This document shows positions 14,543 through 52,650 of a stretch of DNA of 64,000 nt, piece by piece. The position numbers and the translations under genes were made by a program. The notes beneath the pieces were generated by a model, which searched no databases, was not told the origin of the DNA, and saw nothing but the letters and a program-made list of their open reading frames with translations. The stretch is from a virus. Location: the IMG/VR virus record IMGVR_UViG_3300045988_107814, positions 1 to 64,000 of that record. The stretch is one strand, 5' to 3'. Every line of letters begins with the position of its first letter. Positions within the stretch are counted from its first letter, which is position 1.

Positions 14543-14806
14543 TTACTGGTCATCATCTTTATTTTTCTTCTTTTCTTCTCTCTTATTAATTGCTGCTACT
14601 ACGGATATGAGAATTCCAAAACATACAACAACCATAGCACCAAAAATAAGTATAATATCTGCTAAGTCAATCCAAATATCAACAAAGATTGATTTGAAAA
14701 GATAATATACTCCGATTGTTAATATTATTGGAATAATCAATAATATAAATGCAGCAATTGTTAACCATATAATACCAGTTAACTTATCTTTTGTTTTTCT
14801 TTTCAT
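14543..14806 (-). CDS. small membrane protein (2 predicted TM helices)
   Basis: Two hydrophobic stretches, GIIWLTIAAFILLIIPIILTIGVYYLF and IILIFGAMVVVCFGILISVVAAI, with a Lys-rich tail and a good SD. Confidence 0.7.
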   Translation of the reverse strand: MKRKTKDKLTGIIWLTIAAFILLIIPIILTIGVYYLFKSIFVDIWIDLADIILIFGAMVVVCFGILISVVAAINKREEKKKNKDDDQ

Positions 14807-14831
14807 GATGATTTCCCTCCTTTCATATTTA

Positions 14832-15305
14832 TTATATATTATTGACTACATTATTGTCTTTACTTAATATGAATACATCTCTTGTTATATATCTATTACG
14901 ATTAATATACTTCTTGATTTTATTACCTATAGAATTTGTACATATAATTAGATTATTTGCGTAATATCTATATTCCTCAGAGTACCCACTATTATCCCAA
15001 TACTTATGTATATTACCTTTAGAGTTATATATACATGACCAAGTATATCCTCTGCTATCTTTATATTTAATAGGTCTTCTCTTTTCATCATAATCTACCC
15101 AATATTCAAATTTCTCATCTTCTACATACATCATAGAATAAATAATATCGCCATATCTATTCTTTTTGACTTCTGGAGATTTATCCTTTGTTATATCTTT
15201 AGAAAGATTATGACTTACAACTGGAGCACTTCTATTAACAGTATGAGTATTATTATATTTATCATAGTTTTTTACTGTTGTTCTTTTACGTCTGTTTCTT
15301 CTCAT
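14832..15305 (-). CDS. small protein with YD-like repeats
   Basis: YWVDYDEKRRPIKYKDSRGYTWSCIYNSKGNIHKYWDNSGYSEEYRYY resembles degenerate YD repeats. Basic N-terminus; GGAGGGAC SD. Confidence 0.45.
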   Translation of the reverse strand: MRRNRRKRTTVKNYDKYNNTHTVNRSAPVVSHNLSKDITKDKSPEVKKNRYGDIIYSMMYVEDEKFEYWVDYDEKRRPIKYKDSRGYTWSCIYNSKGNIHKYWDNSGYSEEYRYYANNLIICTNSIGNKIKKYINRNRYITRDVFILSKDNNVVNNI

Positions 15306-15345
15306 AACAGTCCCTCCTTTATTATAAGAAAGTTAAAGTACATAT

Positions 15346-15399
15346 AAATTGTAAAACTTTATATTCTTAGCTATATATAATTATAGTGAATAGGAGATA
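15346..15399 (+). repeat. 54-bp promoter-containing repeat, copy 1
   Basis: AAATTGTAAAACTTTATATTCTTAGCTATATATAATTATAGTGAATAGGAGATA; about 48/54 identical to copy 2 at 18078..18131. Confidence 0.85.
15349..15377 (+). promoter_or_regulatory. sigma-A-like promoter (TTGTAA-17-TATATA) for cassette 1
   Basis: -35 TTGTAA at 15349..15354, a 17-nt spacer, and -10 TATATA at 15372..15377 (TATAAT also present 4 nt downstream). Confidence 0.5.
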
Positions 15400-15525
15400 G
15401 TAATAAGACTATCCTTAGAAAAACTATTCGGTCTGGATGCTCGGAGACATTAAACTGAGCAATAGAAGAACATAAACTTTGGATCTATTACTATGATCCC
15501 TGGCGTGTCAAGGAGGAAATTAATT
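15400..15525 (+). promoter_or_regulatory. structured 5' leader of cassette 1
   Basis: About 125 nt between the predicted start and the ATG. Hairpins include TAGGAGATAGT/ACTATCCTTA, GGTCT...AGACATT and GGATC-TATTACTAT-GATCC. The GGTCT(G)...AGACATT element is shared with cassette 2. Confidence 0.35.
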
Positions 15526-15963
15526 ATGGCTAACAGCTACGAAGAATATCTGGACGCAATCAACAGAACAATTATCGAGAACAATAACACAATTACTGAA
15601 TTACAGAGGACGAATCTGGCGTTAATCAATATGATTACATTTATGAAAGCGGCTGTAGAAGATGCATCCGAATCTGATATTCAGAGATACGAAAATCATG
15701 AGTTAGTTAAGTTCGTATTCAAGTTTGGTAACAACACAGTAACAAAGTTGTTATATGAAGTAGATGAATTGGACCTAAAAAAGGTCCCTAATATCATTAT
15801 GTCTTATCTTAACAAAGGAGGTGGTATTATCGATATCGATAATATCGGTTCTATAGAAATAGATTATTTGGAATGGGACGGAAAAGGAGCAATTATTATA
15901 AATCATGATACAGAAGATTTAGTAAAAGCTTATAATAGTTTCATGCATATCGCTAAGATGTAA
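15526..15963 (+). CDS. hypothetical protein (cassette 1 ORF, 145 aa)
   Basis: ATG 15526 lies 9 nt after AGGAGG; the track start at 15493 is unsupported. Plus-strand island with its own promoter-like element and terminator. GC and codon choice (CTG, GCG, ACG) look atypical for the window. Confidence 0.7.
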   Translation: MANSYEEYLDAINRTIIENNNTITELQRTNLALINMITFMKAAVEDASESDIQRYENHELVKFVFKFGNNTVTKLLYEVDELDLKKVPNIIMSYLNKGGGIIDIDNIGSIEIDYLEWDGKGAIIINHDTEDLVKAYNSFMHIAKM

Positions 15964-15991
15964 TGACTAATATCTGCGAGACAAAAATAGC

Positions 15992-16015
15992 AAACTGGGC
16001 TTGGCAACCCAGTTT
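15992..16015. terminator. bidirectional intrinsic terminator
   Basis: AAACTGGG-(8 nt)-CCCAGTTT followed by GTTTTTTTG. Confidence 0.75.
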
Positions 16016-16025
16016 GTTTTTTGTA

Positions 16026-16532
16026 TTACGAACGCTTAGCAACTTTAATTCCAGCGTTTACACAGTTTCTAATTTGATTATCACATCTCTTTAACAAACC
16101 ACAAGAGATATAAGAATTCTTACACTTATCGATAAGACCATGATTAATTTCATCACATTCTACAACTACATATACATCATCTACATCGATACCATAATGT
16201 TCGCAAATGTTATTTACTGCCTCAGCATCATTAGAGATATTATTGTCCATCATGTACATATCTAATACACGACCATCAATAAAATATGCAGCCTCATTAA
16301 GATCACCACACTCTGTTTCACCACATTCTTTCTTAGTGGTTTTACATACTGGAACTGACTCTTCAGAAAACTTTAAACCACTTGGAACTGTAACCTTAGA
16401 AAAATTATGATCGTTACCAATAGTATCATCAAAATTTTCACAAGTTTCAACGCATTCATCTTTATTAACCTTCTTAGAATGACAAGCACCTGCTTCCAAA
16501 AGTACATTAAAAATTCTTTCATTATAACTCAT
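16026..16532 (-). CDS. Cys-rich hypothetical protein
   Basis: 168 aa with about 14 Cys (e.g. CKTTKKECGETECG, CKNSYISCGLLKRCDNQIRNC); AAAGGAGG SD. Confidence 0.7.
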   Translation of the reverse strand: MSYNERIFNVLLEAGACHSKKVNKDECVETCENFDDTIGNDHNFSKVTVPSGLKFSEESVPVCKTTKKECGETECGDLNEAAYFIDGRVLDMYMMDNNISNDAEAVNNICEHYGIDVDDVYVVVECDEINHGLIDKCKNSYISCGLLKRCDNQIRNCVNAGIKVAKRS

Positions 16533-16554
16533 TTTAAATCCTCCTTTTTGGATA

Positions 16555-18024
16555 TTATAATGCTGACGAAATTGATTTCAGCATACTTTCACTTATTTCA
16601 TATATACTTGATACCCCTTTAGTACGTTTACAATTGAGTTTATTATATGCAAAATATTTACCATTCATACTTTGAAGAATGGTTAGATCTTCATATTCAC
16701 GTAATATCTTCTTCTTGTATTCATACTTAACAGGATCCAGTACATTGAAAATTATTGGACTATAATTATTCATTATAGCATCAGATTGGAATTGAATAGT
16801 AGCCAAACTACTATTGAAGTTTTCTTGGATTAATTCTTTATCTACATATTCTAATATGTTACTGAAGTCTAGTTGATCGTCAGAAAGAATATCATCAAAC
16901 TCAGTGACTATTCTTGGAATAAATTGAGAATCTACATAATTCTCATTTTTATATTCTTCATACACAGTCTTTAAGATACTAGATATATCTTCTCCAACGT
17001 ATTTATATGTCTTAGATTCAGTATTATATAGGAGTTCTTTTGATTTTTTTCTTTTTAATTTACCAGATTCTTTATCTCTAGTTACCATATATTCTGATGT
17101 AATATCATTAGACAAAGCAAATCCAGTTTCCATGGTATCTTTGTTAGTGTATTTAGTTACAAATACACTTGGCATCATTGTATCAGGTACTACACCAGGA
17201 GCCATACCTCCAATAGCACCTGGACCTGTGTGCTCATGAATTCTAGAAATAGTCTTTGGTTCATCATCGTTAGAATATGACTCTTTTAATTCAGCAAACA
17301 TAGTTAACAATTGAACAAATTCATTATTGGTGAGTCTAATATAATTATATTCACCTTGATCTGTAATGAACTTTTCTTTCATCAACTGTTTAGCTCTATA
17401 TTCTGGCATCTCTCTATTATTTTTATTATTACCACCATCTTTGATGTCAAATACTAATTTATATGGTAGATAAATAGCATCTGTTATCCAAGTATGTTCT
17501 TCTCCTTCGTATTCATAATATATTGTAGGACCAGGAGTTAATAAATCACCAGAATCTATATTTAGTACATTATCACAAAATTCTAGGAACTTCTTTTCAT
17601 AACTTCCTACATATGATTTATATGTACCATCAGACCATCTATATTTACCAGATATACCTCTATTAGCAAGCATTTTATTTTCTTGCCATTCCATATCATT
17701 TAATAGAGTAGTCTTACCATATACTTTAAGCATATTCTTTTCATAATTCTTTCTAGCTTGTTCTTTGCATTTTACAGAACAATATGCTTTATATCTAACA
17801 GCTTTTTCATCCCATTCAGTTGGTTGTTTACAAATACGGCAAACACCATAAGACGCACCAATAGGTTCTTTTCTATTACATAAGTCAAATACAATTCTAT
17901 TAGCAGTATAGCCTTTCTCAGAACATAGCATATCATCATGATACTTATCAATATGACTAGCTAATTTATTCCTTTCAAAAGTTTTATTACAAAAAATACA
18001 CTTATATTTTCTAGTAGAAGCCAT
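16555..18024 (-). CDS. Zn-finger protein with possible PD-(D/E)XK-like nuclease core
   Basis: Start at ATG 18024 after AAAGGAGG. N-terminal C2H2-like finger (YKCIFCNKTFERNKLASHIDKYH). FCS/MYM-like finger (CRICKQPTEWDEKAVRYKAYCSVKC). ITDAIYLPYKLVFDIKDG resembles a D...D-x-K nuclease motif. Confidence 0.35.
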   Translation of the reverse strand: MASTRKYKCIFCNKTFERNKLASHIDKYHDDMLCSEKGYTANRIVFDLCNRKEPIGASYGVCRICKQPTEWDEKAVRYKAYCSVKCKEQARKNYEKNMLKVYGKTTLLNDMEWQENKMLANRGISGKYRWSDGTYKSYVGSYEKKFLEFCDNVLNIDSGDLLTPGPTIYYEYEGEEHTWITDAIYLPYKLVFDIKDGGNNKNNREMPEYRAKQLMKEKFITDQGEYNYIRLTNNEFVQLLTMFAELKESYSNDDEPKTISRIHEHTGPGAIGGMAPGVVPDTMMPSVFVTKYTNKDTMETGFALSNDITSEYMVTRDKESGKLKRKKSKELLYNTESKTYKYVGEDISSILKTVYEEYKNENYVDSQFIPRIVTEFDDILSDDQLDFSNILEYVDKELIQENFNSSLATIQFQSDAIMNNYSPIIFNVLDPVKYEYKKKILREYEDLTILQSMNGKYFAYNKLNCKRTKGVSSIYEISESMLKSISSAL

Positions 18025-18052
18025 CAATATCCTCCTTTCATATAACTGCATT

Positions 18053-18064
18053 TAATATAATGTT
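18053..18064 (-). promoter_or_regulatory. AACA-N6-TA promoter-like motif
   Basis: Minus strand reads AACATTATATTA; 29 nt upstream of ATG 18024. Confidence 0.45.
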
Positions 18065-18077
18065 TTTCTATTTAGAT

Positions 18078-18131
18078 AAAATGTAAAACTTCTTATTTTT
18101 AGCTATATATAATTATAGTGAATAAGAGATA
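18078..18131 (+). repeat. 54-bp promoter-containing repeat, copy 2
   Basis: AAAATGTAAAACTTCTTATTTTTAGCTATATATAATTATAGTGAATAAGAGATA; direct orientation relative to copy 1. Confidence 0.85.
18081..18109 (+). promoter_or_regulatory. sigma-A-like promoter (ATGTAA-17-TATATA) for cassette 2
   Basis: Same geometry as copy 1; -10 at 18104..18109. Confidence 0.5.
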
Positions 18132-18253
18132 ATATTATACATACTCTTATATCAAAACAATGGAGGTCTGCATATTACTCCATACGTCACAAAGCAGACA
18201 TTCATAAGTGTCAAAAGCTTATGTTCCAGACGTTAAAGGAAAAGGAAAATATT
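18132..18253 (+). promoter_or_regulatory. structured 5' leader of cassette 2
   Basis: Hairpins ATAAGAG/CTCTTAT, GTCTGC/GCAGAC and CATAAG/CTTATG. GTCTG can alternatively pair with CAGAC next to the SD. Confidence 0.35.
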
Positions 18254-18505
18254 ATGAACACTATTGCTAAAATCAATACAGTTGAAAGTGCAAAGGAATT
18301 CGCACGAATGGCAGATGATTTCGCATATCTCTGCGAAGTATGTAAAAAGCTCTTTGAGATTGAAGAGCCTAATCGTGAAAGGATGCAGGAGTGCATTCTC
18401 TCGTTTTCAGATGATTTTAATTGTGACACAATCGGACTTGAACCTTACGGCCGCCAGCTTGATGTAAGCTGGTGTTTGGATTTGCTTGGAATGTTCCTTG
18501 GCTAA
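18254..18505 (+). CDS. hypothetical protein (cassette 2 ORF, 83 aa)
   Basis: ATG 18254 after AAAGGAAAAGGAAAA. About 40% GC by eye against about 30% in the surroundings. Own promoter-like element, long leader and strong terminator. Confidence 0.65.
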   Translation: MNTIAKINTVESAKEFARMADDFAYLCEVCKKLFEIEEPNRERMQECILSFSDDFNCDTIGLEPYGRQLDVSWCLDLLGMFLG

Positions 18506-18524
18506 TTAAAACATCAGAAAAAGA

Positions 18525-18551
18525 ATAAGCGGGACTTTACATCCCGCTTAT
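18525..18551. terminator. bidirectional intrinsic terminator
   Basis: ATAAGCGGGA-(7 nt)-TCCCGCTTAT followed by TTTTT. Confidence 0.8.
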
Positions 18552-18559
18552 TTTTTGAA

Positions 18560-18868
18560 TTAATCAATATCAGCAATAGTTTCAACGAAGCAATTATAAT
18601 AAATATATCGTTTTCCATCTAGATCAAACTTAACATATCCGCCATCATTAGTTTCAATATCAATCTTACCAGAATAACTAGCAATGATTTCACCGTCAGC
18701 TGTATATACATTAATTGTTCGTTCTAGACCATTACCAAAATCAGATTTCATATCTACTAATTGTCTTTGACAACTACTGGAACAACCTGTGAATAGAACT
18801 AGAATGAATAACGAACTTAGAATAACTTTTGTAATCATTCCAATGATTCTATATTTTTTATTTTTCAT
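18560..18868 (-). CDS. lipoprotein
   Basis: MKNKKYRIIGMITKVILSSLFILVLFTGCSSS has a basic n-region, a hydrophobic core and a lipobox-like LFTG|C. Confidence 0.7.
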   Translation of the reverse strand: MKNKKYRIIGMITKVILSSLFILVLFTGCSSSCQRQLVDMKSDFGNGLERTINVYTADGEIIASYSGKIDIETNDGGYVKFDLDGKRYIYYNCFVETIADID

Positions 18869-18885
18869 AGAAATCTCCCTCTAAA

Positions 18886-20610
18886 TTAATACTTGTTAAT
18901 GTTTACTGTAGATAGAATAAACTGATTTGCAGTGGCCATAATAGTAACAATCTTGGAAATTGTATTGATAGTACAAACGTCAGTATCAATACTAGACAGA
19001 ACACTCTTATCGAATTCCTTTGTAACAATATTCATTGGACATTGATATTCGCCAAGAGATCTTACAATTAAATCGGAAGTATCTGATACAATACTAGAAT
19101 ACAGAAGATCAGTAATGTCAAAATATGCATCAGAAATAATCTGTGCAATCTTTCTCTTATGATCTGTATCATCAGATTTAATAGAATTGTACTTTTCAAA
19201 TACTTCATTAGATGCTCTTAATCCTTCGAAGTTTGCACCATAACCTACACCATTGATCGTAGCAGAACGACAATTGAGCACAGCGTCTTCTAATAGATCA
19301 CGTTCAGCATCTCTATCAGCAACACTAACACCACCAACAAAGATTTCTACCATCTTACCTTTTAAAGAATTAAGTCTCTTTTTAAGTGTATAAATATCTG
19401 TAGTATTATTACCTTCTACTTCAAGCTTAGAAATCTGCTTTTCAAGATAATCAATTCTCTGATTAAATAACTCAGAGTAAGATCCATCTTCCTTATACAT
19501 ATTCTTAGGAGTTACAAATGTAGTCTTATTTGCATCAGAAGATACCATTTCTGCACTACCACCGAAATCAGTTACAGTATCAGGTGTAGGTGCAATTCCG
19601 TTCTTAATATCTTCCTTCTGAATCTCTTGATCAAGATATTTCTTAATAGGCTTACAACCACAAAGATCACAAATATCTTCATATTGTTCCATATCACAAC
19701 CTGCAATATCTGTGATAATATTCAACCAGCCACGATTAGCAGCAGATGCATTAGCCATTAACTGCATAAGACTATCAATATAAGATGAATAGTCACGAGA
19801 AATTCTTGGAGCCATAATAATAGTAGGAATCATATTTTCAGTCTTCTTTTCATTCAAAGGTTTTACAATATTATTATAAAGAATAGAATCCAAGAACAAA
19901 CCCATTTCCATTGTATCAATAGGATCCTTAAATGCATAGATCTTAGGGTTACGAATTACACAAGAATTCTTAGATGTATCGTTAATCAATGTAGGATCGA
20001 GAAAACCACAATCCATAGTCATACCATTGATTTCTTTAAGATAAGTAGTACCATTCATAGATGCTTTTACGTCAATATAAACATCAAGACCAAATTCAGT
20101 ATATACATCCTTAAGCATGTTTGCCAATTTTGTATTGCCATTAGTAGATGTAAGAGCAATATGATAAACATCATCAATAGTAGCAGGTCTACCATTAGAC
20201 TTAATAACTTCACAAATTTCATCAGCGATTTCCTTAAATGTATCAACAATTGTAGCAGGTGTAATACCAGCTTCACTTTCAACATCTTCTTCATACTTTG
20301 CCAGTGCCTTAAAAATAATAGCAGACAGAATTGTAATAGATGTTGTCGAGTCACCTACTTTAATAGCCTGAGTTCTTGTTTCTTCTTGAATATCTGCAAG
20401 AACAGAATTTTCAATTTCACCAGCAAACTGGATCTTACTAAGGATAGTATGACCGTCCTTAGTATATCTTGGTAAAGCACCATTTGTATTAATTACGGTA
20501 TTCGAACCATAAGGACCAAAAGACTTACTTAAATAAGTCTTAAGTTCATCCATAGTCTGAACCTGTGTTTCTCTAAGAGATTCCTTTTCTACAATATTAG
20601 AATAAATCAT
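18886..20610 (-). CDS. GroEL/Cpn60-family chaperonin
   Basis: Three segments align with conserved GroEL N-terminal motifs. FGPYGSNTVIN matches GPKGRNVVL, TKDGHTILSKIQF matches TKDGVSVAREIE, and VGDSTTSITILSA matches AGDGTTTATVLA. Size is 574 aa. Confidence 0.75.
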   Translation of the reverse strand: MIYSNIVEKESLRETQVQTMDELKTYLSKSFGPYGSNTVINTNGALPRYTKDGHTILSKIQFAGEIENSVLADIQEETRTQAIKVGDSTTSITILSAIIFKALAKYEEDVESEAGITPATIVDTFKEIADEICEVIKSNGRPATIDDVYHIALTSTNGNTKLANMLKDVYTEFGLDVYIDVKASMNGTTYLKEINGMTMDCGFLDPTLINDTSKNSCVIRNPKIYAFKDPIDTMEMGLFLDSILYNNIVKPLNEKKTENMIPTIIMAPRISRDYSSYIDSLMQLMANASAANRGWLNIITDIAGCDMEQYEDICDLCGCKPIKKYLDQEIQKEDIKNGIAPTPDTVTDFGGSAEMVSSDANKTTFVTPKNMYKEDGSYSELFNQRIDYLEKQISKLEVEGNNTTDIYTLKKRLNSLKGKMVEIFVGGVSVADRDAERDLLEDAVLNCRSATINGVGYGANFEGLRASNEVFEKYNSIKSDDTDHKRKIAQIISDAYFDITDLLYSSIVSDTSDLIVRSLGEYQCPMNIVTKEFDKSVLSSIDTDVCTINTISKIVTIMATANQFILSTVNINKY

Positions 20611-20639
20611 TTAGTTTCCTCCTTAATTATATTAATTAT

Positions 20640-21422
20640 TTAATTGTTTTCGTGTTTGGTTTTTATTACATATCTGAGTGTAGCATAGTCAGAATCAGAT
20701 TTTCTATAAGTGTCTATAATAGCAGTCTTAGAAAATCCACTAAACCACAAATAATGAGACAGTTCTACATCTGGATATGGCTTATCATCAAATGTAGTAT
20801 TGAATTTGTAGTTTAATAATACTACTCTCTTTTCATTGAATTTATTTTTAAATTTGTATACATCATTTTTATTTTTGAAAATAAATTCTGTATACTCATC
20901 TAAATTAATATCAGATGGATCTTCCATAACAATCACGTTTACTTTAGAATGATATTTTCTTATTACCTTTTTCTCTTCTTCACTAGTACATAAGATATTT
21001 ACATGTACATTGTTCATATTAGAGAATACAGATATAAGGAAAAATATTCCAGTAATAGCGAGATACTTATCCTCTTTTAAAAGATCAGAGTATCTCTTTA
21101 ACATGATTTCTTTATAGATATTGTCTGCTAGTTTTTTATCCTTAATACATACAGTAAGAGGATTAGGATCTTCTCTATTAATAAGAAGGTGTTTAACTTC
21201 TTTTGAAGTCATATACATAACAGATTGATCTATAAATTCTGGATTATTATATTCTGCTTGTATCATTCTTAAAATAGAAAAATCCAAATCTATAACAGCG
21301 TTAAACATAATAAGATAATTATGATATCCAGAAGCCGCATTCTTTTCGTCTGATGAAGAAGACTCTACTTCTTTCTTAGTTCCATCTGGTTGTATTTCTT
21401 CAACCTTAATACTTTCAATCAT
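20640..21422 (-). CDS. hypothetical protein
   Basis: 260-aa ORF with start overlapping the upstream stop. The weak AVIDLDFS motif is discussed under rejected items. Confidence 0.65.
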   Translation of the reverse strand: MIESIKVEEIQPDGTKKEVESSSSDEKNAASGYHNYLIMFNAVIDLDFSILRMIQAEYNNPEFIDQSVMYMTSKEVKHLLINREDPNPLTVCIKDKKLADNIYKEIMLKRYSDLLKEDKYLAITGIFFLISVFSNMNNVHVNILCTSEEEKKVIRKYHSKVNVIVMEDPSDINLDEYTEFIFKNKNDVYKFKNKFNEKRVVLLNYKFNTTFDDKPYPDVELSHYLWFSGFSKTAIIDTYRKSDSDYATLRYVIKTKHENN

Positions 21423-30189: not shown

Positions 30190-31869
30190 TTAGATCTTAT
30201 GTTTTACTCTATCTCTCTCTTCGGCTTGTTTTGCAGAGTTCCATCTATCAACAGTAGAAGTCAAATATCCAGTGATACGTCTAATACGTTCAAAGCCAAT
30301 ACCATCTTCACTTTCTTTTCTATGACAGAATGGACACTCATCATTGATAACACCAGTATATCCACAAACAGGATCTCTATCTACAGGATGATTAATTGCA
30401 CCATAACCAATATTATTGTCATGCATACACTCTACAACTGCTTCAATAGCATTAGGATTTCTAGAAGTATCTCCATCAAATTCTACATAACAGATATGAC
30501 CACCATTACAAAGTTCATGGAAAGGTGCTTCTAATTTAATTTTTTCTTCTGCTGTAATATTGAAGTATACTGGAATATGATTACTATTTGTAAAGTAATC
30601 TCTATCAGTAACACCCTTTATAATTCCAAACTTATTTCTACATTGTCTTAGTGCTTTACCTGCATATGATTCAGCTGGTGTAGCAAATGTACTAAAGTTT
30701 AATTTATATTCTTCAGAAATCTTATCTGTAAACTCACGCATATGCTTAATAATAGCATATCCTTTATCCCAATACTCTTTTCCTTCACCATGATGATGAC
30801 CATAAAGAGCAACCAATGTTTCCGCTAAACCTACAAATCCAATAGACAAACTACCATGTTTAATTACTTCACGGATCTCATCTTCAGGACCAAGTTTATC
30901 AGAACCAATCCAAACCCCTTCTCCCATTAAGAATTTCATATTCTTAACTTTGATTCTAGCTTGGATTTCAAATCTTTCCAATAACTGTTTCTTACAAAGT
31001 TCAAGATATTTATCAAGTAATTCATAGAACTTAGCTTCATCACCATTAGCAGTTAAAGCTAACATAGGAAGATTAATTGTTGTAAACGATAGATTTCCTC
31101 TACCGTAAGCAATCTCATTTTCAGGATCATAGACATTTCCCATAACTCTTGTACGGCATCCCATTGCACATACTTCTGTTTCTGGATGACCTGGTTTATA
31201 ATACTGCTTATTAAAAGTAGCATCTTCAAATACATAATTTGGGAACAAACGTTTTGATGTTACTCTATAAGATAACAGAAGCAAATCATAATTAGGATCT
31301 TCTGGATTATAGTTTACTCCTTCCTTTACCTTGAAAATTACAATAGGGAAGATAGCTGTTTCTCCATGTCCTAATCCAGCTTCCATAGCAAGTAATAAGT
31401 GCTTAGTAATCATTCTACCTGCATTACTTGTATCAGTACCCAAATTAATTGAGGAAAACGGAACTTGAGCACCTGCACGTGAATGTAATGTATTAAGATT
31501 ATGAACAATACCTTCCATAGCTTGGTAGCATTGTATTTCTGTATCGTCAATTGTCATTTTTATAATATCTTTAATATTTTTGATTAAATATACACTATCA
31601 CCATCATAATCAGAACCATCATTATTTACTAATGTAAAAGAACGGTCTCTTCCCAAAAATCTATCAATAATTTCATCTGTAATAGAAATAGGTGTTTCTC
31701 CAGAATTATCATAATTTAATTGTTTATCTGTTTTAATAGACATATTAATACCACTATCAATAAGTCCAAATTCAATAGCTTTCTTGACATTATTATTCCA
31801 TGCTTTTCTGAATGTCTTATAAATGCCAGGAGCCATAGCGTAATCAAAATTAGGTATTGCTTGCCCACC
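30190..31869 (-). CDS. nrdD: anaerobic ribonucleoside-triphosphate reductase, exon 2
   Basis: Contains the C-terminal Zn site CGYTGVINDECPFCHRKE and the glycyl-radical motif RRITGYL. The reading frame is open upstream of the track ATG back to GGT 31869 (GGQAIPNFDYAMAPG). Confidence 0.85.
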   Translation of the reverse strand, partial: GGQAIPNFDYAMAPGIYKTFRKAWNNNVKKAIEFGLIDSGINMSIKTDKQLNYDNSGETPISITDEIIDRFLGRDRSFTLVNNDGSDYDGDSVYLIKNIKDIIKMTIDDTEIQCYQAMEGIVHNLNTLHSRAGAQVPFSSINLGTDTSNAGRMITKHLLLAMEAGLGHGETAIFPIVIFKVKEGVNYNPEDPNYDLLLLSYRVTSKRLFPNYVFEDATFNKQYYKPGHPETEVCAMGCRTRVMGNVYDPENEIAYGRGNLSFTTINLPMLALTANGDEAKFYELLDKYLELCKKQLLERFEIQARIKVKNMKFLMGEGVWIGSDKLGPEDEIREVIKHGSLSIGFVGLAETLVALYGHHHGEGKEYWDKGYAIIKHMREFTDKISEEYKLNFSTFATPAESYAGKALRQCRNKFGIIKGVTDRDYFTNSNHIPVYFNITAEEKIKLEAPFHELCNGGHICYVEFDGDTSRNPNAIEAVVECMHDNNIGYGAINHPVDRDPVCGYTGVINDECPFCHRKESEDGIGFERIRRITGYLTSTVDRWNSAKQAEERDRVKHKI

Positions 31870-32206
31870 CTGTCGATCACTACAATCAACAGGACTATAT
31901 CACGAACTTCACCTTCAAGTGGTCAGTTCCCAACGCACTTCGGAGCTGTATCAATCTCAGCCCTAACGATACTCGGTTACTCGGTCTTCTTATGCAAGAC
32001 CTATCCTTTTTCTAGTCTCTAGACCTTCAATATATTATAATAATATAAAGCTTGGCACAGGATTCTTGCGGGCTCATTCCCTGTTAGCAAAAGAATTAAT
32101 ATATCATTTCCTATATAAATCTAAGCGATTCTTTCACACCTCGCTGATAAACGAGTTCACGTTGCTTTGCAATTATATATTTCTATATAATGGCACAGTT
32201 TTATCT
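31870..32206 (-). ncRNA. group I self-splicing intron (no internal ORF) interrupting nrdD
   Basis: A 337-nt non-coding, GC-richer insert lies between two in-frame halves of nrdD. The 5' exon ends in U (..CAG CAU|) and the insert ends in G (..CGACAG|GGU). Removal joins ...IAIQSNQNDQH to GGQAIPNFDY..., a continuous conserved NrdD segment. Confidence 0.75.
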
Positions 32207-32899
32207 ATGCTGATCGTTCTGATTACTTTGAATAGCAATGGCTGCTAGAGTAGCGTAAGAACCAATAGAGTTTGGTTCTCTTAAGTGTCCATGTCCTGTG
32301 TTAAATCCGCCCTTAAATAACTTAAGACAATCGATCTGACAGCAGGTAAGAGTCAAAGCATAAAAGTCTAAATCGTGGATATGAATAAACCCATCTGTAT
32401 ATGCTTGTACGATATCTTTACTAATCATATTATTTAGATAATAATTCTTAGATACATTAGAACCAATCTGCAACATAGTTCCCATCGGAGAATCACCATC
32501 AATATTACCATTGTCACGTTTCAGATCATTTTCATATGATTCTGTATTTAAAAGAGTAGAGATTGTACTGGTAATAGAATCTCTTGTATTTCTGATTTCA
32601 TTTCTCTTTTGACGATATAAGATATATTCTTTTGCAGTATCAGCGAATCCATTTTTAATAAGAGTTCGTTCTACAATATCTTGAATATCTTCTATATTGA
32701 TTGTAGTAGATTTGATCTTTTGACAAAAAGCAAAACATTCATCATTAATAATATCTACCAACTTATCACAAACTTTAGAGTCAAATGTTTCATCAACATG
32801 AGAAGCTAGAACAGCTTTTTCAATAGCATTAAAGATCTTATCCTTATCAAAATCTACAATACTACCATTTCGTTTACGAGTTTTCATTCCATAATCCAT
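32207..32899 (-). CDS. nrdD: anaerobic ribonucleoside-triphosphate reductase, exon 1 (ATP-cone + N-terminal core)
   Basis: KTRKRNGSIVDFDKDKIFNAIEKAV is an ATP-cone start. The ORF reaches a stop 2 codons into the intron. Confidence 0.85.
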
Positions 32900-33034: not shown

Positions 33035-33886
33035 TTAATCATAATAGTTTGTATTATTGTCAAACATAAAGTACTTTTTATATAACTCATTAGCCTCATT
33101 AAAAGCGTGATCAATATTTTTCTGGTTTTCATCATCTTGTTCAGTCTGCTTCAAATTATTGAGGCAAGCAAGGATTTCTCCAATACGTGTACCAAGTTCA
33201 AATAATACTTCTTTAGAACAGAGCATACAAAGAATCTTATCAAGTTCTTCATTATGATTACTGTACATTGTCATGGTCATAAAATCACCAACACTAACAT
33301 CATAATATTTCTCAAAGATATCTTTAAGCTCTTTTCTATTAGTAGTCATTGATAACTGAATTTTGACTTCCTCATCATCATCTTTTGAAACAGTACGATT
33401 TTCATAATATTCTTTATATTCCTCAACAAAGTTTTTAATATCTTCTGGTGTAATATTATTAATTATATTGTCTTTATTAGATAATGATTCCTCAACTTCT
33501 TTTTGAATCCGATGACGAGGTATAATATTATTAATTATATTATCTTTATTAGATAATGATTCCTCAACTTCTTTTTGAATCTGATGACGAGAGGAATATA
33601 CAAATTGCTTATACACTTCTTCAAGTAAGTGAAATTGTTTACCAGATACATATACTTCTGTTTTGCAATTTGCAGGATCCCATCTGGCTTCTTTAACTTC
33701 ACAATTGTTCAGAGCATTCAGAGCAGCAATAGAATCGTTGAATGTCATTCTACTGAAATCAACTAATACTATTTTAATATCATATTTTTGATACATATCG
33801 TAATTCAATATTATATAATGATCTATAATATACTTGAATCTATTGCTATCAAAAGCTAATTTACCGAATATATACTTATTATCCAT
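33035..33886 (-). CDS. hypothetical protein with in-frame 24-aa tandem duplication (member of local paralogue array)
   Basis: (H/R)(Q/R)IQKEVEESLSNKDNIINNI(I/T)P occurs twice, corresponding to the 2 x 72 bp repeat at 33448..33591. Confidence 0.7.
   Translation of the reverse strand: MDNKYIFGKLAFDSNRFKYIIDHYIILNYDMYQKYDIKIVLVDFSRMTFNDSIAALNALNNCEVKEARWDPANCKTEVYVSGKQFHLLEEVYKQFVYSSRHQIQKEVEESLSNKDNIINNIIPRHRIQKEVEESLSNKDNIINNITPEDIKNFVEEYKEYYENRTVSKDDDEEVKIQLSMTTNRKELKDIFEKYYDVSVGDFMTMTMYSNHNEELDKILCMLCSKEVLFELGTRIGEILACLNNLKQTEQDDENQKNIDHAFNEANELYKKYFMFDNNTNYYD
33448..33591 (-). repeat. 2 x 72 bp in-frame tandem duplication
   Basis: 33448..33519 and 33520..33591 differ at about 3 positions and encode a duplicated 24-aa block. 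Confidence 0.9.
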
Positions 33887-35734: not shown

Positions 35735-36520
35735 TTATTTGATTGTCGGATACAGCTGATTAACAAAGTCAACATTTGGATTAGGACGATAGAAATCGTC
35801 AAAATCAAGTGTTGTGATATCAGGAGCAATAATAAGAGAAAATCCCTTGCCATATGTTTTATCATTTACAACACCAGCAAACTTAACTTCTCCGATATCT
35901 TTAAGAACAAATTTGTTAGAATTTAGATTTGTCTCATACAACGGAATAAATACTTCCATATTATCAGGAAGATCTTTGATTGCTACTTTCAGATCAAAGA
36001 TTGTCATATACGGGTTTGTTTTCGAGTCTACATTTGGAAACAGATAATGAGTATAGTTATTGATTCTACTAATAGAAGAAATCAATTCATTATCAATTCC
36101 AAAACTAAATACATTTCCGTAGATATCATCGCTGATCACACCGGCAGTATTAGCAATTCTGTGATCATTTGGAAATTCTTCTTCGAAATTTTCATACAAA
36201 GGAATCAATACCTTCATATTATCAGGAAGATCTTTGATTGCTACTTTCAGATCAAAGATTGTCATAGTTTTTGTTCTGTTAGCAGCTGCTTCTTCGTTAT
36301 AATTTTTTCCTTTGAGCCGTACACAAATTTGATTTGTGTTTCCAGTCGATTCGATTCCGAGCACTTCATAGTCCAAGTAATCGTAATAGTTTTTGTGAGT
36401 GCTAAGTTCTTGCAACCAAGCATCTCCAAAGTCAACACGTACACATACATGTTTTGGATCTACCAGTCCAGAGTTAATAAGACCTCTCAGAGTAAATACC
36501 ATTGTTCTTTTTTGGTTCAT
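35735..36520 (-). CDS. hypothetical protein with duplicated domain
   Basis: MTIFDLKVAIKDLPDNM(K/E)V(L/F)IPLYE occurs twice, 86 codons apart (52-nt identical DNA repeat). Confidence 0.7.
   Translation of the reverse strand: MNQKRTMVFTLRGLINSGLVDPKHVCVRVDFGDAWLQELSTHKNYYDYLDYEVLGIESTGNTNQICVRLKGKNYNEEAAANRTKTMTIFDLKVAIKDLPDNMKVLIPLYENFEEEFPNDHRIANTAGVISDDIYGNVFSFGIDNELISSISRINNYTHYLFPNVDSKTNPYMTIFDLKVAIKDLPDNMEVFIPLYETNLNSNKFVLKDIGEVKFAGVVNDKTYGKGFSLIIAPDITTLDFDDFYRPNPNVDFVNQLYPTIK
35957..36266 (-). repeat. two 52-nt identical direct repeats, 258 bp apart
   Basis: CATATTATCAGGAAGATCTTTGATTGCTACTTTCAGATCAAAGATTGTCATA at 35957..36008 and 36215..36266, marking an intragenic domain duplication. 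Confidence 0.85.
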
Positions 36521-43986: not shown

Positions 43987-45618
43987 ATGGATATATTTGA
44001 ATATTGTCATAGTGAAATCTATTGGTGTGAAGTTGATAAATGGATACCATTAATAGGAGAAAATATTTTTACCAATGTGAAGAATGCAATTATTCTTCCT
44101 GTATCGTCATTTTTCGGTATGACGAAATCTAATGTATTAGATACGTTTTTCTTATTACCGAAGAGATGCTATAATTCAGATGAAATAAGAAATCATATCT
44201 GTAAATATCTAAACTATTTCGAAAAATTTTATGATCATGAGCATGAACTTTTGTTCTATATGTATAAGATCAAAGTATCTATTGATATGGGTGTGTATGA
44301 TAATGCTGTTGATAATGGTGTTATTATTGATGGCATAGATAATGAGAATACACCACCTAAAATTAAAGCATTCTTATATGATATCAAAACTTATATCTTG
44401 TCCGAATCAATCTACAATAAAGTATGGAGAATGGTTGAGGATAACTATAACCTTGAATTGAATTATAAGAATAAAGCTAACGAAGCACTTCAATATTGTG
44501 ATCGACATGGTAAGTATTTTATGGAGATTAGTATCTTCCAGAATATGCTAATTCCATTGTTGATGCATTTTATGTACAAAGATGATAAGTTAAAGAATGC
44601 GACTGAAATTATGAACGGACTTATCTTCAATGTATACAACTGGTTATTCGACGTTTATAGTAATGAAGCTATAATGGTTAAACGTGGATTAAGACCAGCA
44701 GATATGTTTCAGAAACTATATGAAACTGCAATCACCACAATGAACGCTCATTATAAAACTAATAGAACATTGTGGGATATGTCTAGTATTCGTGGCTATT
44801 GCCCAAATATTAATGCACATGATGCAATTAATACAGTAATAATGCAGGTAATGCCAAAATACACCTTTGAGGGAAACGTTATTACATACAATATAACTTC
44901 TATCAGAAACAATATCAAATATAATATTTCCGATATAAGCTTTGAGTATGATTTCGTTTCTCTAAGTTCCTCAAAACGAGATGGTGAAGATAACACATCT
45001 CAATTTGATAAATTTGAAGCTCATCTACAAAAGACAGATGAGGGCTTGGCTCTACAGAATGATTTCAGAGCTAGAAAAACAATTGAAGATATTTTACAAG
45101 TTAACGGTGATATTCCTCAGAGTGAAATAGATTTTTATAGAAAAGAACTCATTAAGAATGGTCAACCGTTAATCAATAGATTCCAACAGAATCTTGTTGA
45201 TAATGTATTTTATAAATATTTTGGAGATACTGTTTCTACTAACAGTATTAATGGTGACGATTATATTAAGTTGATGATTATTGCCAAAAAACTATTACTA
45301 AGACAAGGAATGATTCTATTACCATATATAGTCGCTAGCAAGGTAGTAAAAATCTCTACTAGAACTTCTCTTTGTAAGAAAGAACTTATGAAGATGGAGC
45401 AGTCTGAGCACTATAATACACTCATGAAAAAATATAATGGTAATAAAAAGGTCATGAATATATTATTTTCGCTAATCGCAACCACGTTATCTAGTAACTT
45501 CAAGATCATTGATTATGATGAAAAGAATAATGTACCAACAGAACTCAATGGTATTGAAGTGCAAATGGAGAATGATATTATAATTGACGAAATGTTAAGA
45601 TTCGTCATTATGATATAA
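43987..45618 (+). CDS. hypothetical protein
   Basis: 543-aa ORF with an AGGAGG SD and a terminator downstream. Confidence 0.7.
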   Translation: MDIFEYCHSEIYWCEVDKWIPLIGENIFTNVKNAIILPVSSFFGMTKSNVLDTFFLLPKRCYNSDEIRNHICKYLNYFEKFYDHEHELLFYMYKIKVSIDMGVYDNAVDNGVIIDGIDNENTPPKIKAFLYDIKTYILSESIYNKVWRMVEDNYNLELNYKNKANEALQYCDRHGKYFMEISIFQNMLIPLLMHFMYKDDKLKNATEIMNGLIFNVYNWLFDVYSNEAIMVKRGLRPADMFQKLYETAITTMNAHYKTNRTLWDMSSIRGYCPNINAHDAINTVIMQVMPKYTFEGNVITYNITSIRNNIKYNISDISFEYDFVSLSSSKRDGEDNTSQFDKFEAHLQKTDEGLALQNDFRARKTIEDILQVNGDIPQSEIDFYRKELIKNGQPLINRFQQNLVDNVFYKYFGDTVSTNSINGDDYIKLMIIAKKLLLRQGMILLPYIVASKVVKISTRTSLCKKELMKMEQSEHYNTLMKKYNGNKKVMNILFSLIATTLSSNFKIIDYDEKNNVPTELNGIEVQMENDIIIDEMLRFVIMI

Positions 45619-47943: not shown

Positions 47944-47974
47944 ATTTATTTTTTGCTTTAGTACCTCTAAGCTC

Positions 47975-47986
47975 AACATTTCAATA
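47975..47986 (+). promoter_or_regulatory. AACA-N6-TA promoter-like motif
   Basis: AACATTTCAATA(AT), after the terminator at 47921..47943 and 20 nt before ATG 48006. Confidence 0.55.
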
Positions 47987-48005
47987 ATGCAAAGGAGGTA
48001 TAGAT

Positions 48006-50583: not shown

Positions 50584-50619
50584 ATAATCCGTAGGAACAT
50601 TCAAGTTCCTATGGATTAT
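50584..50619. terminator. bidirectional intrinsic terminator (15-bp stem)
   Basis: ATAATCCGTAGGAAC-(6 nt)-GTTCCTATGGATTAT, between the convergent gene 50143..50580 and the mini-ORF/beta-prime unit. Confidence 0.8.
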
Positions 50620-50651
50620 TTTCTCTTAAATCATATTTATTATTTTATTTC

Positions 50652-50690
50652 TCAATATGATCCAATTCCGCCGCCGAAGCCGTCGCCCAT
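50652..50690 (-). CDS. 12-codon mini-ORF MGDGFGGGIGSY (candidate micropeptide or leader peptide)
   Basis: AAGGAGG (50705..50699) lies 8 nt upstream of ATG 50690; TGA stop at 50654..50652. The coding run GGCGACGGCTTCGGCGGCGGA is strikingly GC-rich for this genome. It is flanked by hairpins at 50720..50738 and 50584..50619. Confidence 0.35.
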   Translation of the reverse strand: MGDGFGGGIGSY

Positions 50691-50719
50691 TATATATTCC
50701 TCCTTTCAATATATAATGA

Positions 50720-50738
50720 GATAGGATTATATCCTATC
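50720..50738. promoter_or_regulatory. inverted repeat (8-3-8): terminator of the beta-prime gene or operator of the mini-ORF
   Basis: GATAGGAT-TAT-ATCCTATC lies between the stop at 50758 and the SD at 50705. Confidence 0.35.
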
Positions 50739-50757
50739 ATTAATATTATATATAATT

Positions 50758-52560
50758 TTAGAATATTGGATTTACAAATTTAACAGAATCATCAGGTTGA
50801 ACAGTTAATTCATATAAACAGAGTATATTTTCTTTAGATACATCTCTTGTAGAATAACCGTTCATACCAAGTATTTGAATCTTTGCATCGGCTTGTTTCT
50901 CACATTCTTTATTTGCCTCTATTGTATACACAGGTTTTACAATTGCTGTATCACCATCATAATCCATTCCCATCGCTCCAATTAATCCATTACAAATAGA
51001 CAATGTATCTTCAAACACTGGAGATGTATTTGAATTGATATCCCTGTCAGTTATAATAGGGTACCATTTATATAGCTTATTGTTATCTTCAAAATCAGAT
51101 TGTATTACCATAGGTTGTGTTTTAACAGTAGATTTGATTCTTACTTTTGTAGGATACTGGTTTAAGAACGAGTCAATTGGGAAACGAGTAATTAGAACCA
51201 TCTTATCGGATGTAACATCACAAGCAGCCATATAGAACAAGTCACACCAAGTAAGAGGTCTATTGATCTTTAATTCTGAAGAATATTCTTTTTTCTTTTC
51301 ATCAAAATCTTTAGAATTATTTAACTTATATCCCATAAAGTACATATAAAAGCTTAACTCATTGATTTTAATATTTTTACCAGTAACTGTATCTTTTAAT
51401 TCACCATTCTTAGCACGTCTAGCAAATTCTTCTTTATCTACTGGTAATTCAATAGGAATAAATCTGTTTGAATAACCATGGATGAAACGTTCAATCTGAG
51501 CATCCAATTCTACATCAGAAAAAGCTATCTGATAATCTACAAGAGGAACCATTACTACTTCTTTATCATTAATAGAAATAGGATATTCTAGTTTACCTGC
51601 AAATCTATTCTCAAAGAATCGTCTTAACCAGAACATAATAAATGGTTTAAAACAACACAATGCCGCAGCCAATGGTAATGCAGCATGATTCATATCTACC
51701 ATTAAATCATCAATATCTTCACCAGATACATCTGGTGCAGACATAACTAATCTTGCAGAATAGTCTACTGTCTTATACATTACACCACGTTTAATAAGAC
51801 CCATTTTACCAGGTAAGTTTGCCGGTGTTTCTTGTCCATTAATCGTTGTACCATTACCAAACCAATCAAATATCTGTAATAAAATATTCTGAACTCTAGC
51901 TTTTGTTACATCACTTAAAGTTAGGCCAAATTCAGCAGTTTCTTTTAAAGACTTAGTAGCCATAATCAGACTACTATATAACTTATTAATTTCACCAACA
52001 CCGATACCATTATCTTTAGTATCTACGTCTCTATAATATGGTGGAATTACTATATACTTTGTTACCCATAATTGATTCTTGCACTTTTCAATAAAATCAA
52101 TTCTTCTGTTTCTAGAAGATGATTCATTCTTTTTAAACTTCAATTTACTAAAGTTTCTTTTAAGCCAATCAATACCAGTATTACCATCATCAGATTTAAC
52201 TAATTCACCACCATCATTAATAATAAAATATTCTGTACCGTTAACTACACTTTCAATTTTATTATTTAATTTACATAGTGTCTTATATACTAATGGATGA
52301 AAAAAAGAACTACCAAGATCTATATAAGCATATATACCAGATCTCTCAGCTTTAGTAATACCAAAAATTTCATTAGAAAGCAATCCATCTTCTGTAGGTG
52401 TAGGACCATTAAAAAATACAGGATTAGTAATTTCTTTCAATTGATTTACTCTAATAAATTTATCTACATCTAATAAAGAAGTTTTTAGGTGTTCTGTACT
52501 AGCTTCTGAAAAATAATCAGTTTCATTTTTAACAATATTTACAGCTTCATCTATAAGCAT
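50758..52560 (-). CDS. multisubunit RNA polymerase beta-prime-like subunit, N-terminal half (split beta-prime)
   Basis: GLLSNEIFG matches GGLF.E.IFGP near the N-terminus. The catalytic Mg loop GAMGMDYDGDTAIV (beta-prime NADFDGD) lies about 70 aa from the C-terminus. That placement is as expected for the N-terminal fragment of the split beta-prime of phiKZ/AR9-type phage RNAPs. Confidence 0.7.
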   Translation of the reverse strand: MLIDEAVNIVKNETDYFSEASTEHLKTSLLDVDKFIRVNQLKEITNPVFFNGPTPTEDGLLSNEIFGITKAERSGIYAYIDLGSSFFHPLVYKTLCKLNNKIESVVNGTEYFIINDGGELVKSDDGNTGIDWLKRNFSKLKFKKNESSSRNRRIDFIEKCKNQLWVTKYIVIPPYYRDVDTKDNGIGVGEINKLYSSLIMATKSLKETAEFGLTLSDVTKARVQNILLQIFDWFGNGTTINGQETPANLPGKMGLIKRGVMYKTVDYSARLVMSAPDVSGEDIDDLMVDMNHAALPLAAALCCFKPFIMFWLRRFFENRFAGKLEYPISINDKEVVMVPLVDYQIAFSDVELDAQIERFIHGYSNRFIPIELPVDKEEFARRAKNGELKDTVTGKNIKINELSFYMYFMGYKLNNSKDFDEKKKEYSSELKINRPLTWCDLFYMAACDVTSDKMVLITRFPIDSFLNQYPTKVRIKSTVKTQPMVIQSDFEDNNKLYKWYPIITDRDINSNTSPVFEDTLSICNGLIGAMGMDYDGDTAIVKPVYTIEANKECEKQADAKIQILGMNGYSTRDVSKENILCLYELTVQPDDSVKFVNPIF

Positions 52561-52585
52561 TATTTATACCTCCTCGTACATTAAT

Positions 52586-52597
52586 TATTAAATTGTT
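52586..52597 (-). promoter_or_regulatory. AACA-N6-TA promoter-like motif upstream of RNAP beta-prime gene
   Basis: Minus strand reads AACAATTTAATA(AT). Confidence 0.5.
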
Positions 52598-52650
52598 GAA
52601 GCTGTAAAAAGAGTCGTATGATTCTTTTTATATACATCTAAGTCTACTTT

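Follow-up and report, generated by a model that had tools for sequence, protein, structure and literature searches.

We describe two small transcription units in a viral genome fragment of 64,000 nucleotides (nt), positions 1 to 64,000 of the IMG/VR record IMGVR_UViG_3300045988_107814, which is referred to below as the window. Both units, or cassettes, lie on the plus strand of the region 15300-18600, in which all neighbouring genes are on the minus strand, and each consists of a repeated promoter-like element, a long leader, a single small open reading frame (ORF) and an intrinsic terminator. We consider it probable that they are monocistronic early-expression cassettes of a jumbo phage that encodes its own RNA polymerase (RNAP), headed by a clade-specific promoter that would be read by the virion RNAP. 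They are best described as part of a clade-wide system of early-gene cassettes assembled from standard parts, namely a promoter with a helix at position +1, a structured leader, an ORFan and a bidirectional terminator with a conserved loop, and placed in gaps of conserved gene blocks.

A repeat search of the window returned the two promoter elements as a direct repeat of 62 nt with 89% identity (15344-15405 and 18076-18137), in agreement with an earlier reading of the DNA letters (the sequence-only reading), which had noticed a repeated element heading two plus-strand units within a minus-strand block. The hexamers quoted there are also present, (T/A)TGTAA at 15349-54 and 18081-86 followed after 17 nt by TATATA, and the parts expected of autonomous promoter-to-terminator modules running against the surrounding genes can be recognized in both units (Table 1). 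At up to three mismatches, the 43-nt core of the repeat was found at these two sites only, with 0 sites expected from 100 shuffles.

The layout of the element, TGTAAAAC-N14-TATATATAAT-TATAGT-G, is clade-wide. By exact match, it is seen at least four to six times per genome in related phage contigs of 160-230 kb, and its exact 19-mer core TATATAATTATAGTGAATA has at least 6, 4, 4 and 3 copies in four IMG/VR contigs (162-231 kb) and also occurs in several smaller contigs. About 30 non-redundant instances of the bipartite motif were collected from related phages. In these, TATATATAAT is invariant, the element is always oriented toward its ORF, and the parts follow each other on the same strand in a single order: promoter, hairpin starting at the G, leader of 50-165 nt, Shine-Dalgarno (SD) sequence, one ORF of 50-189 amino acids (aa), and intrinsic terminator. 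Near-invariance spans about 45 nt, with the spacer included, and reaches +5. A metagenome scan with a 17-mer gave mostly chance matches, with few new instances among the matches listed.

A two-block position weight matrix was built from the related-phage instances and run over the window, counting sites with a core-block score above 8 bits; only the sites at 15344 and 18076 passed. The looser pattern TGTAAA-N15-22-TATATAAT gave three matches in the window versus 0.16 expected, and it describes a putative third, diverged promoter of the same class, which is located on the minus strand, with the beta'-like RNAP gene on one side and a convergent gene on the other. Downstream of this site are a 5' hairpin (AUAGGAUAUAAUCCUAU), an SD, a GC-rich ORF of 12 codons (MGDGFGGGIGSY) and a terminator, and its product could be a micropeptide or a small RNA. 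The 43-nt core thus has no third copy in the window; the further members of the class are the diverged site and the multiple copies in related contigs. In a separate observation, a contig of 1.5 kb (L005, positions 60-140) carries a terminator-like hairpin (AGACAGACTGGATTAAATTCCAGTCTGTCT) in place of the TGTAAAAC block of the cassette 1 promoter; the hairpin abuts the AT-rich core, and core and leader are kept. If this arrangement is real and not the product of a chimeric assembly, the TGTAAAAC block would be dispensable.

Table 1. Coordinates of the cassette parts and of the other features discussed, numbered from the first nucleotide of the window.
Feature	Position	Strand	Description
Cassette 1 promoter element	15344..15387	+	TTGTAAAAC at 15349-15357; AT-rich core TATATATAAT at 15372-15381; TATAGT spacer; predicted +1 G at 15388
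Cassette 1 leader	15388..15525	+	Type A; about 138 nt from the predicted +1 G
ORF1	15526..15963	+	145 aa
Cassette 1 terminator	15989..16018	both	Bidirectional, intrinsic; common with convergent 168-aa gene; loop CUUGGCAA
Cassette 2 promoter element	18076..18119	+	ATGTAAAAC at 18081-18089; TATATATAAT at 18104-18113; TATAGT; predicted +1 G at 18120
Cassette 2 leader	18120..18253	+	Type B; about 134 nt from the predicted +1 G
ORF2	18254..18505	+	83 aa
Cassette 2 terminator	18524..18552	both	Bidirectional, intrinsic; common with convergent 102-aa gene; loop within GGACUUUACAUCC
Putative third, diverged promoter of the same class	50590..50776 (promoter match 50776-50745)	-	TGTAAA-N18-TATATAAT-ATTAAT-G; also read as TGTAAATCC...TATATATAAT-ATTAAT-G
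RNAP subunit-like gene	43987-45618	+	phrog_25005 match
Beta'-like RNAP gene	50758-52560	-	phrog_2986 match; weak match to bacterial beta' around the catalytic region; MDYDGD motif
AACA-N6-TA(A) example	18055-18066	-	Upstream of gene
AACA-N6-TA(A) example	20611-20660	-	Upstream of gene
AACA-N6-TA(A) example	47960-48005	+	Upstream of gene
AACA-N6-TA(A) example	52561-52600	-	Upstream of gene

Measured from the G of the conserved 5' helix, both leaders are longer than the 120-125 nt first assigned to them. The structure of the cassette 1 leader was derived from alifold and from alignments of relatives. Its 5' helix, GAAUAG (15388-93) paired with CUAUUC (15424-29), encloses GAUAGU/ACUAUC and is followed by the hairpin GGUCU (15430-34)/AGAC (15445-48), by a GGAUC/GAUCC hairpin 3' of it, and by the SD AAGGAGG (15510-16). 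A candidate pseudoknot joins the loop GCUCGG (15439-44) to the downstream CUGAGC (15455-60); comparative support for it is weak (one wobble-compatible change and two disruptive changes), and the nested pairing CUUAG:CUGAG is just as good a fit. The promoter and the first 75 or so leader nucleotides are essentially unchanged in relatives whose ORF1 is as little as 56% identical. A leader peptide was considered and rejected, since the AUG in this leader is missing from relatives.

The cassette 2 leader opens with the helix GAAUAAGAG (18120-28)/CUCUUAU.UC (18144-53), followed by a predicted H-type pseudoknot with stems S1, AUGGAG (18160-65)/CUCCAU (18178-83), and S2, GUCUGC (18166-71)/GCAGAC (18194-99), and by the hairpin P3, CAUAAG (18203-08)/CUUAUG (18218-23). 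A UUCCAG box and then tandem AAGG boxes, which serve as SD, lie 3' of P3. Among 11 sequences from two genera, 190 of the 192 helix cells of S1, S2 and P3 are paired and 10 of the 18 pairs are changed on both sides; slid controls were 22-41% paired and had 0-4 pairs with changes on both sides. A covariance model built exclusively from six sister-genus type B leaders matched 18120-18256 of the window (37.3 bits, E ~6e-7) as well as all four relatives. A model of the same alignment that used sequence information only gave 19.4 bits for the window and missed the relatives, and the covariance model, when run against cassette 1, found no match. The type B alignment was segmented by hand and cross-checked with covariance models; MAFFT misaligned the helices of the two type B subgroups, and the covariance-model alignment reproduced P1 and P3 better than S1. 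Taken as a comparative prediction, the type B leader has a covariation-supported H-type pseudoknot and a hairpin. Covariation in relatives, which the sequence-only reading had made a touchstone for the leaders, is thus present for type B, and the type A pseudoknot is weakly supported.

Hairpin-rich leaders had been claimed for both cassettes. Only the leader of cassette 2 folds better than shuffled sequences (z = -2.6); that of cassette 1 is no more stable than shuffles (z = -0.8). The two leaders of the window align over the 5' helix only, and their common features are this helix and a CUAUG(A/U)UCC box that lies just upstream of the G-rich SD region in all leader types. With so little in common, and with a cassette 2-type covariance model that misses cassette 1, the suggestion of a single shared cis-regulatory RNA is not supported. 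The GGTCT(G)...AGACATT element does occur in both leaders, but it is not kept in the sister genus, where type B leaders have GAUGC...GCAUC instead. Three to four leader types occur behind this promoter class, and in several cassettes (L021, L043) the leader is reduced to the 5' hairpin alone and measures 50-55 nt.

The window has a GC content of 30.1% and encodes a large terminase, virion proteins, an anaerobic ribonucleotide reductase, a GroEL-like protein and fragments of a multisubunit RNAP, the latter being recognized through PHROG matches to beta/beta' fragments as split beta/beta'-like subunits. The motif AACA-N6-TA, known as the late-promoter consensus of the Bacillus phage AR9 (PMC5312081), is enriched about 5-fold in the 80 nt upstream of window genes, has the extended form AACA(A/T)TT(A/C)AATAA, and precedes virion genes, the GroEL-like gene and the beta'-like gene; by analogy, it is likely this phage's promoter class for the non-virion RNAP. 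Because RNAP fragments and AR9-type late-promoter motifs occur in the window, its sequence assigns the phage to the AR9/phiKZ-type RNAP-encoding jumbo phages, here from gut metagenomes. The consistent AGGAGG-type SDs suggest a Firmicutes-like host. Lysogeny genes were not seen among the ORFs annotated in the window, and the gene content is of the lytic type. A megablast search with positions 14800-19000 gave no match among GenBank phages. Homologues of ORF1 and ORF2 are confined to metagenomic contigs, with pig-gut assemblies among the sources, and the longest related contigs (about 215 kb) carry both cassettes in the same syntenic context. A search of IMG/VR for relatives of ORF1 found none, and the genus of the window itself was found only in ENA/Logan contigs.

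Because the phage encodes a split beta/beta'-like RNAP and carries AR9-type late motifs, an early promoter for the virion RNAP is, by analogy, the likelier reading of the element, and a sigma-A promoter the less likely one. RNAP-encoding jumbo phages possess conserved, AT-rich, multi-copy early-promoter motifs near -10 that are read by the virion RNAP (PMC5312081, PMC7598289). The early promoter of AR9, AAATATATATTAT-N6-G(+1), is highly conserved and AT-rich (PMC5312081), and the early promoters of 201phi2-1 and phiKZ are also conserved around -20 and -30. In the element described here, TATATATAAT is AT-rich, about 10 nt long and located near -10 of the putative start, and is followed by 6 nt and then by a G. 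In every leader type a 5'-terminal helix begins at this G (GAAUAG:CUAUUC, GAAUAAGAG:CUCUUAU.UC, GAAUAAGG:CCUUAUUC and GAAGAAUAGU:ACUAUUCUUC), and because the helix of each leader family starts there, the conserved G is the predicted +1. The AR9-type early core TATATATTAT was also considered as a second early class and rejected, its four copies in the window being at about chance level according to a hand estimate from base composition.

The sequence-only reading had considered dependence on the host RNAP probable. In such a moron transcribed by the sigma-A holoenzyme, either TTGTAA-17-TATATA or the TATAAT at -12 to -7 would be used, the additional conserved bases would act as UP-like or discriminator sequences, and the element would be a very strong early promoter comparable to those of T4 or SPO1 and to those of the promoter-early stem-loop (PeSL) cassettes of T4-type phages. 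Both copies do contain the hexamers at this spacing, the TGTAAAAC block lies at a -35-like distance and is conserved in nearly all instances, the TATAAT falls exactly at -12 to -7 when +1 is placed at the conserved G, and PeSL cassettes do have sigma-70-like early promoters before ORFans (PMC2839356). However, the match to the consensus is only 8-9/12 (8/12 for TTGTAA-17-TATATA and 9/12 for TTTATA-18-TATAGT, the best scan call at the site), and sigma-70-like sites of this quality are no commoner in the window than in shuffled sequence (30 found versus 33.7 expected). A sigma-A promoter would not need near-invariance over about 45 nt that includes the spacer and reaches +5, phages with their own multisubunit RNAP genes and AR9-type late promoters have been described with early transcription by the virion RNAP, and contig L005 keeps the AT-rich core and leader behind a terminator-like hairpin instead of TGTAAAAC. 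Given the phage RNAP subunits, the AR9-type late motifs and the mediocre sigma-70 score, host-RNAP dependence is doubtful, and we regard it as unlikely, although it deserves more weight than any other alternative.

Several points nevertheless weigh against our preferred interpretation of virion-RNAP early cassettes. The element does contain sigma-70-like hexamers, including TATAAT at -12 to -7 of the putative start, and its conserved upstream TGTAAAAC block is more -35-like than anything described for AR9 early promoters. There are only two to three copies in the 64-kb window and at least four to six per genome by exact match, compared with 41 early promoters in AR9, and no RNAP subunit is found among the genes behind the motif; the element may thus be a special subclass and not the general early promoter. 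As to the leaders, that of cassette 1 lacks excess folding stability, and the type B covariation comes effectively from two or three lineages and from an alignment that was drawn up with the structure already in view. The start site, the timing and the polymerase are predictions from sequence.

A different question is whether the leaders sense something. They could be ligand- or protein-sensing switches, riboswitch-like elements or translational operators, in which the UUCC(C)AG box near the SD takes part in alternative pairing and expression becomes conditional. Their length and a conservation above that of the ORFs would suit such a role, as would the covariation of the type B pseudoknot and the CUAUG(A/U)UCC box beside the G-rich SD region in all types, where alifold pairs UCCC with GGGA/GGGG; in the sister genus, moreover, the type A hairpin loop UGGAAC is complementary to a downstream GUUCCA. 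On the other hand, the specific switch put forward earlier, in which GUCUG pairs with the SD-proximal CAGAC of cassette 2, is not conserved in relatives, the type B leaders of the sister genus having nothing equivalent, and the short leaders of L021 and L043, with a 5' hairpin and little else, indicate that a switch is no general requirement. Nor do the leaders point to a ligand pocket or to a binding partner. Rfam 15 gave no match at gathering scores in the window, and at E values up to 10 the matches within 15300-18600 fell only on terminators and coding regions and none on the leaders, so that a known ribozyme or riboswitch was rejected for want of an Rfam match. On balance, we find a sensing function improbable.

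Both cassettes end in bidirectional terminators, as the sequence-only reading had stated, each with a G+C-rich hairpin and T-runs on both strands. The loop CUUGGCAA of cassette 1 is found in sister-genus cassette terminators in either orientation, and the loop of the cassette 2 terminator is kept in cassette terminators of two other genera, in which the stems differ. Across genera, two loops recur on varying stems, GGACU(U/C)UACAUCC and CUUGGCAA or its complement (window, L021, L024, L041, L043 and L046). Conserved loops are unusual for intrinsic terminators and point to an exchange of the terminators, too, as parts, or to a factor that binds them.

The two small ORFs are unrelated to each other, as had been noted, with no BLAST similarity between them. 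Neither gave a Pfam or PHROGs match, in line with the sequence-only reading, which had recognized neither protein. ORF1 has 15 homologues with 56-94% identity, all in metagenomic contigs of this phage clade, and in their alignment the C-terminal two-thirds are conserved and the helical N-terminus is variable. Its AlphaFold2 model is poor (mean predicted local distance difference test score, pLDDT, of 52) and would place a long helix at the N-terminus and an alpha/beta part at the C-terminus. The model of ORF2 is confident (pLDDT 86, predicted template modelling score 0.74) and predicts a compact fold of three helices and a beta hairpin, for which Foldseek found no match below E = 0.4 in PDB and BFVD. 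A profile search with ORF2 against 1.84 billion representatives returned clade members only; two multi-repeat matches, P0033 and P0034, were rejected as spurious repetitive translations. In one lineage (L007:3575-3763, L008 and L009) ORF2 is cut to 62 aa, ORF2 C-terminal-like sequence continues past the stop in another frame, and promoter and leader are intact; the shortened form is possibly a recent pseudogene or reflects a sequencing error common to several assemblies.

Elevated GC had been claimed for both ORFs. It is evident for ORF2 (40.9% versus 30.1% for the window, a value reached by 0.3% of length-matched windows), but not for ORF1 as a whole (32.6%, equalled or exceeded by 23% of length-matched windows), which is GC-rich only at third codon positions (34.9% versus a gene mean of 22%, rank 5 of 67 ORFs, three of the four above it being doubtful short ORFs). 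Clade-wide, the GC content of 23 out of 25 cassette ORFs exceeds that of their own locus, by 5 points on average, and elevated GC is therefore a property of the gene class and not of these two alone. Thirteen families without detectable similarity to each other account for the 25 complete cassette ORFs. A role of the encoded proteins in host takeover or anti-defence is a reasonable guess from their position and putative timing class.

The insertion status of the cassettes was revealed by a sister genus (L180, L182 and L183), in which the block GroEL-p498-p168-p157-p238 is collinear with the window, at 79% identity for the GroEL-like protein and 62-89% amino acid identity over the block except for p238 (33-36%). 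There, the gaps GroEL-p498 (90 nt) and p168-p157 (69 nt) each contain a hairpin only, and no homologues of ORF1, ORF2 or the 102-aa protein p102 were found in the 13.7-kb loci. Because both cassettes are missing from these gaps, with a short hairpin at each position, the moron-like architecture proposed earlier is supported. Cassette 1 stands in place of a 30-nt sister-genus hairpin, from about 15334 to 16022. The left edge of the cassette 2 insertion is at about 18067, some 14 nt upstream of TGTAAAAC and directly after the late-type motif AACATTATATTA of the 498-aa gene. In other contigs cassette 2 is present without the 102-aa gene, and the distribution as read from these sequences requires more than one insertion or deletion event.

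Parts also occur in different combinations. Members of one ORF family follow type A leaders in some cassettes and type B leaders in others, and the family of ORF2, which has a type B leader in the window, is represented in the sister genus by a tandem-duplicated 173-aa protein (P0030; L041/L167) with a type A leader at another position. With homologues of both proteins found only within the clade, and this ORF2 relative behind a different leader, the horizontal acquisition that the sequence-only reading thought probable is doubtful as an acquisition from outside. It is very improbable that the repeats are recombination scars or mobile-element ends, for example targets of the endonuclease-like 498-aa gene (phrog_15137) around which they lie as direct repeats 2732 bp apart. 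The cassettes do behave as indels when compared with the sister genus. However, both the endonuclease-like gene and p168 are collinear there without either repeat, so that the 2.7-kb inter-repeat segment is neither the indel nor an acceptable mobile element. The left end of each indel lies just upstream of one repeat and its right end at the terminator of that cassette, and the element faces an SD and ORF within a fixed distance range in about 30 instances.

Among known systems, the PeSL cassettes of T4-type phages come closest (Arbiol et al. 2010, PMC2839356; Comeau et al. 2014, PMC4122927). There, ORFans are flanked by recurring early-promoter/stem-loop motifs through which indels and swaps arise. 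In both systems a repeated promoter/stem-loop motif precedes small ORFans in or between conserved blocks and is tied to indels and swaps between close relatives, and terminators keep early transcription out of late genes. PeSLs, however, are sigma-70-consensus promoters of Gram-negative T4-like phages with a terminator stem-loop in or next to the promoter, whereas the cassettes described here belong to an RNAP-encoding jumbo phage and have a distinct, non-consensus 45-nt promoter motif, a hairpin downstream of +1 as the predicted mRNA 5' end, a structured leader of 130-165 nt within the repeated module, and a separate 3' terminator with conserved loops. Because phage type, promoter and arrangement of parts differ, the cassettes are, judged by their anatomy, an analogue of the PeSLs and not a member of that group.

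The likeness to the AR9 early promoters lies in the AT-rich, near-invariant core around -10 with a G after 6 further nt, in the multiple copies, in the position upstream of small hypothetical genes, and in the fact that both were found bioinformatically. AR9 also has split beta/beta' subunits and the late motif AACA-N6-TA, and its early transcripts have long 5' untranslated regions (UTRs) with an unexplained shared motif. The differences are the core itself, here TATATATAAT-TATAGT-G, the additional TGTAAAAC block about 14 nt upstream, copy numbers per genome far below the 41 of AR9, and starts that are here predicted from sequence.

The definition of classical morons comes from lambdoid prophages, where they are expressed while the prophage is repressed and benefit the host. 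The cassettes resemble them in having their own putative promoter and terminator, in lying between genes that are adjacent in relatives, in their presumed independent transcription and, for ORF2, in an atypical composition. They differ in that they reside in a large phage of lytic-type gene content and use a phage-wide promoter class, and because of the latter they belong to the phage's own programme. As for the leaders, 5'-terminal stem-loops stabilize the mRNAs of ompA and papA in E. coli and act similarly in the aprE leader and ermC of B. subtilis, and the leader pseudoknot of T4 gene 32 nucleates the autoregulatory binding of gp32 on a single gene. The +1 helix, the H-type pseudoknot of cassette 2, the long 5' UTR and the strong SD downstream recall these cases in their layout, but the sequences are not similar, and the leader types described here each stand before genes that are unrelated to one another. 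Literature on 5'-terminal stem-loops as mRNA stabilizers is listed in PMC3997798.

We propose the following model. Immediately after infection, the virion RNAP would read TGTAAAAC-14 nt-TATATATAAT-6 nt-G(+1), by analogy with AR9 and phiKZ-type phages, which makes early timing of the cassettes plausible. The helix formed with the first transcript nucleotides probably shields the 5' end from 5'-end-dependent decay of the RNase J1/Y type. The structured leader of 130-140 nt, taken from interchangeable families (type A in cassette 1, type B with its pseudoknot in cassette 2), would probably set mRNA stability and/or ribosome access and could provide a common handle for coordinated control of early mRNAs. 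The strong SD would then drive translation of one small accessory protein, and the bidirectional terminator would insulate the unit from the opposing middle/late genes. Recombination between the repeated promoter-leader modules and terminators would move or swap the small ORFs, and this shuffling is the proposed reason why the cassettes are present here but not in the sister-genus gaps.

The architectures themselves (jumbo-phage early promoters, PeSLs and morons) are known and appear here in a new form, the structured leader families being the most novel element. In a more far-reaching proposal, which we put forward only tentatively, the leaders would be previously undescribed cis-acting RNA modules of phages, with at least three structural families that have the +1 helix and the CUAUG(A/U)UCC box in common and offer a post-transcriptional handle on the early mRNAs of RNAP-encoding gut jumbo phages; promoter-leader and conserved-loop terminator parts would double as recombination substrates that shuffle anti-host genes. 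Such a handle might be recognized by a phage factor that shuts off or activates the mRNAs in a coordinated way, or the pseudoknot might confer resistance to host 5'-to-3' decay.

Other features of the window were recorded outside the cassette region. On the minus strand, the NrdD-like gene is split by a GC-rich (about 46%) non-coding gap at 31837-32200; its 548-aa ORF covers profile positions 260-713 only, and upstream of it there is an ORF of 232 aa. RF00028, the group I intron model, matches weakly over its full length at 31870-32216 (18.2 bits, E = 0.034, under the gathering score), and the gap probably represents an intron of group I like that in T4 nrdD. A 72-nt tandem duplication in perfect register with 96% identity is located at 33447-33590, and a 75-nt repeat with 95% identity, its copies 258 nt apart, at 35934-36266. 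Three repeats spaced 243/258 nt at 54167-54905, within a plus-strand ORF of 489 aa, probably represent a repeated domain of a structural protein.

Our findings provide a bioinformatic marker for the genes that are likely expressed earliest in an uncultivated clade of gut jumbo phages, and the 13 unrelated families of small proteins behind the motif are natural candidates for host-takeover or anti-defence functions. The compact promoter, leader and terminator parts could be used as candidate expression elements in Firmicutes-type hosts, and the shared 5'-UTR motif of AR9 early transcripts may have a counterpart here that is open to covariation study. The results further suggest that ORFan shuffling in the style of the PeSLs also takes place in RNAP-encoding jumbo phages, with a long structured leader forming part of the mobile module.

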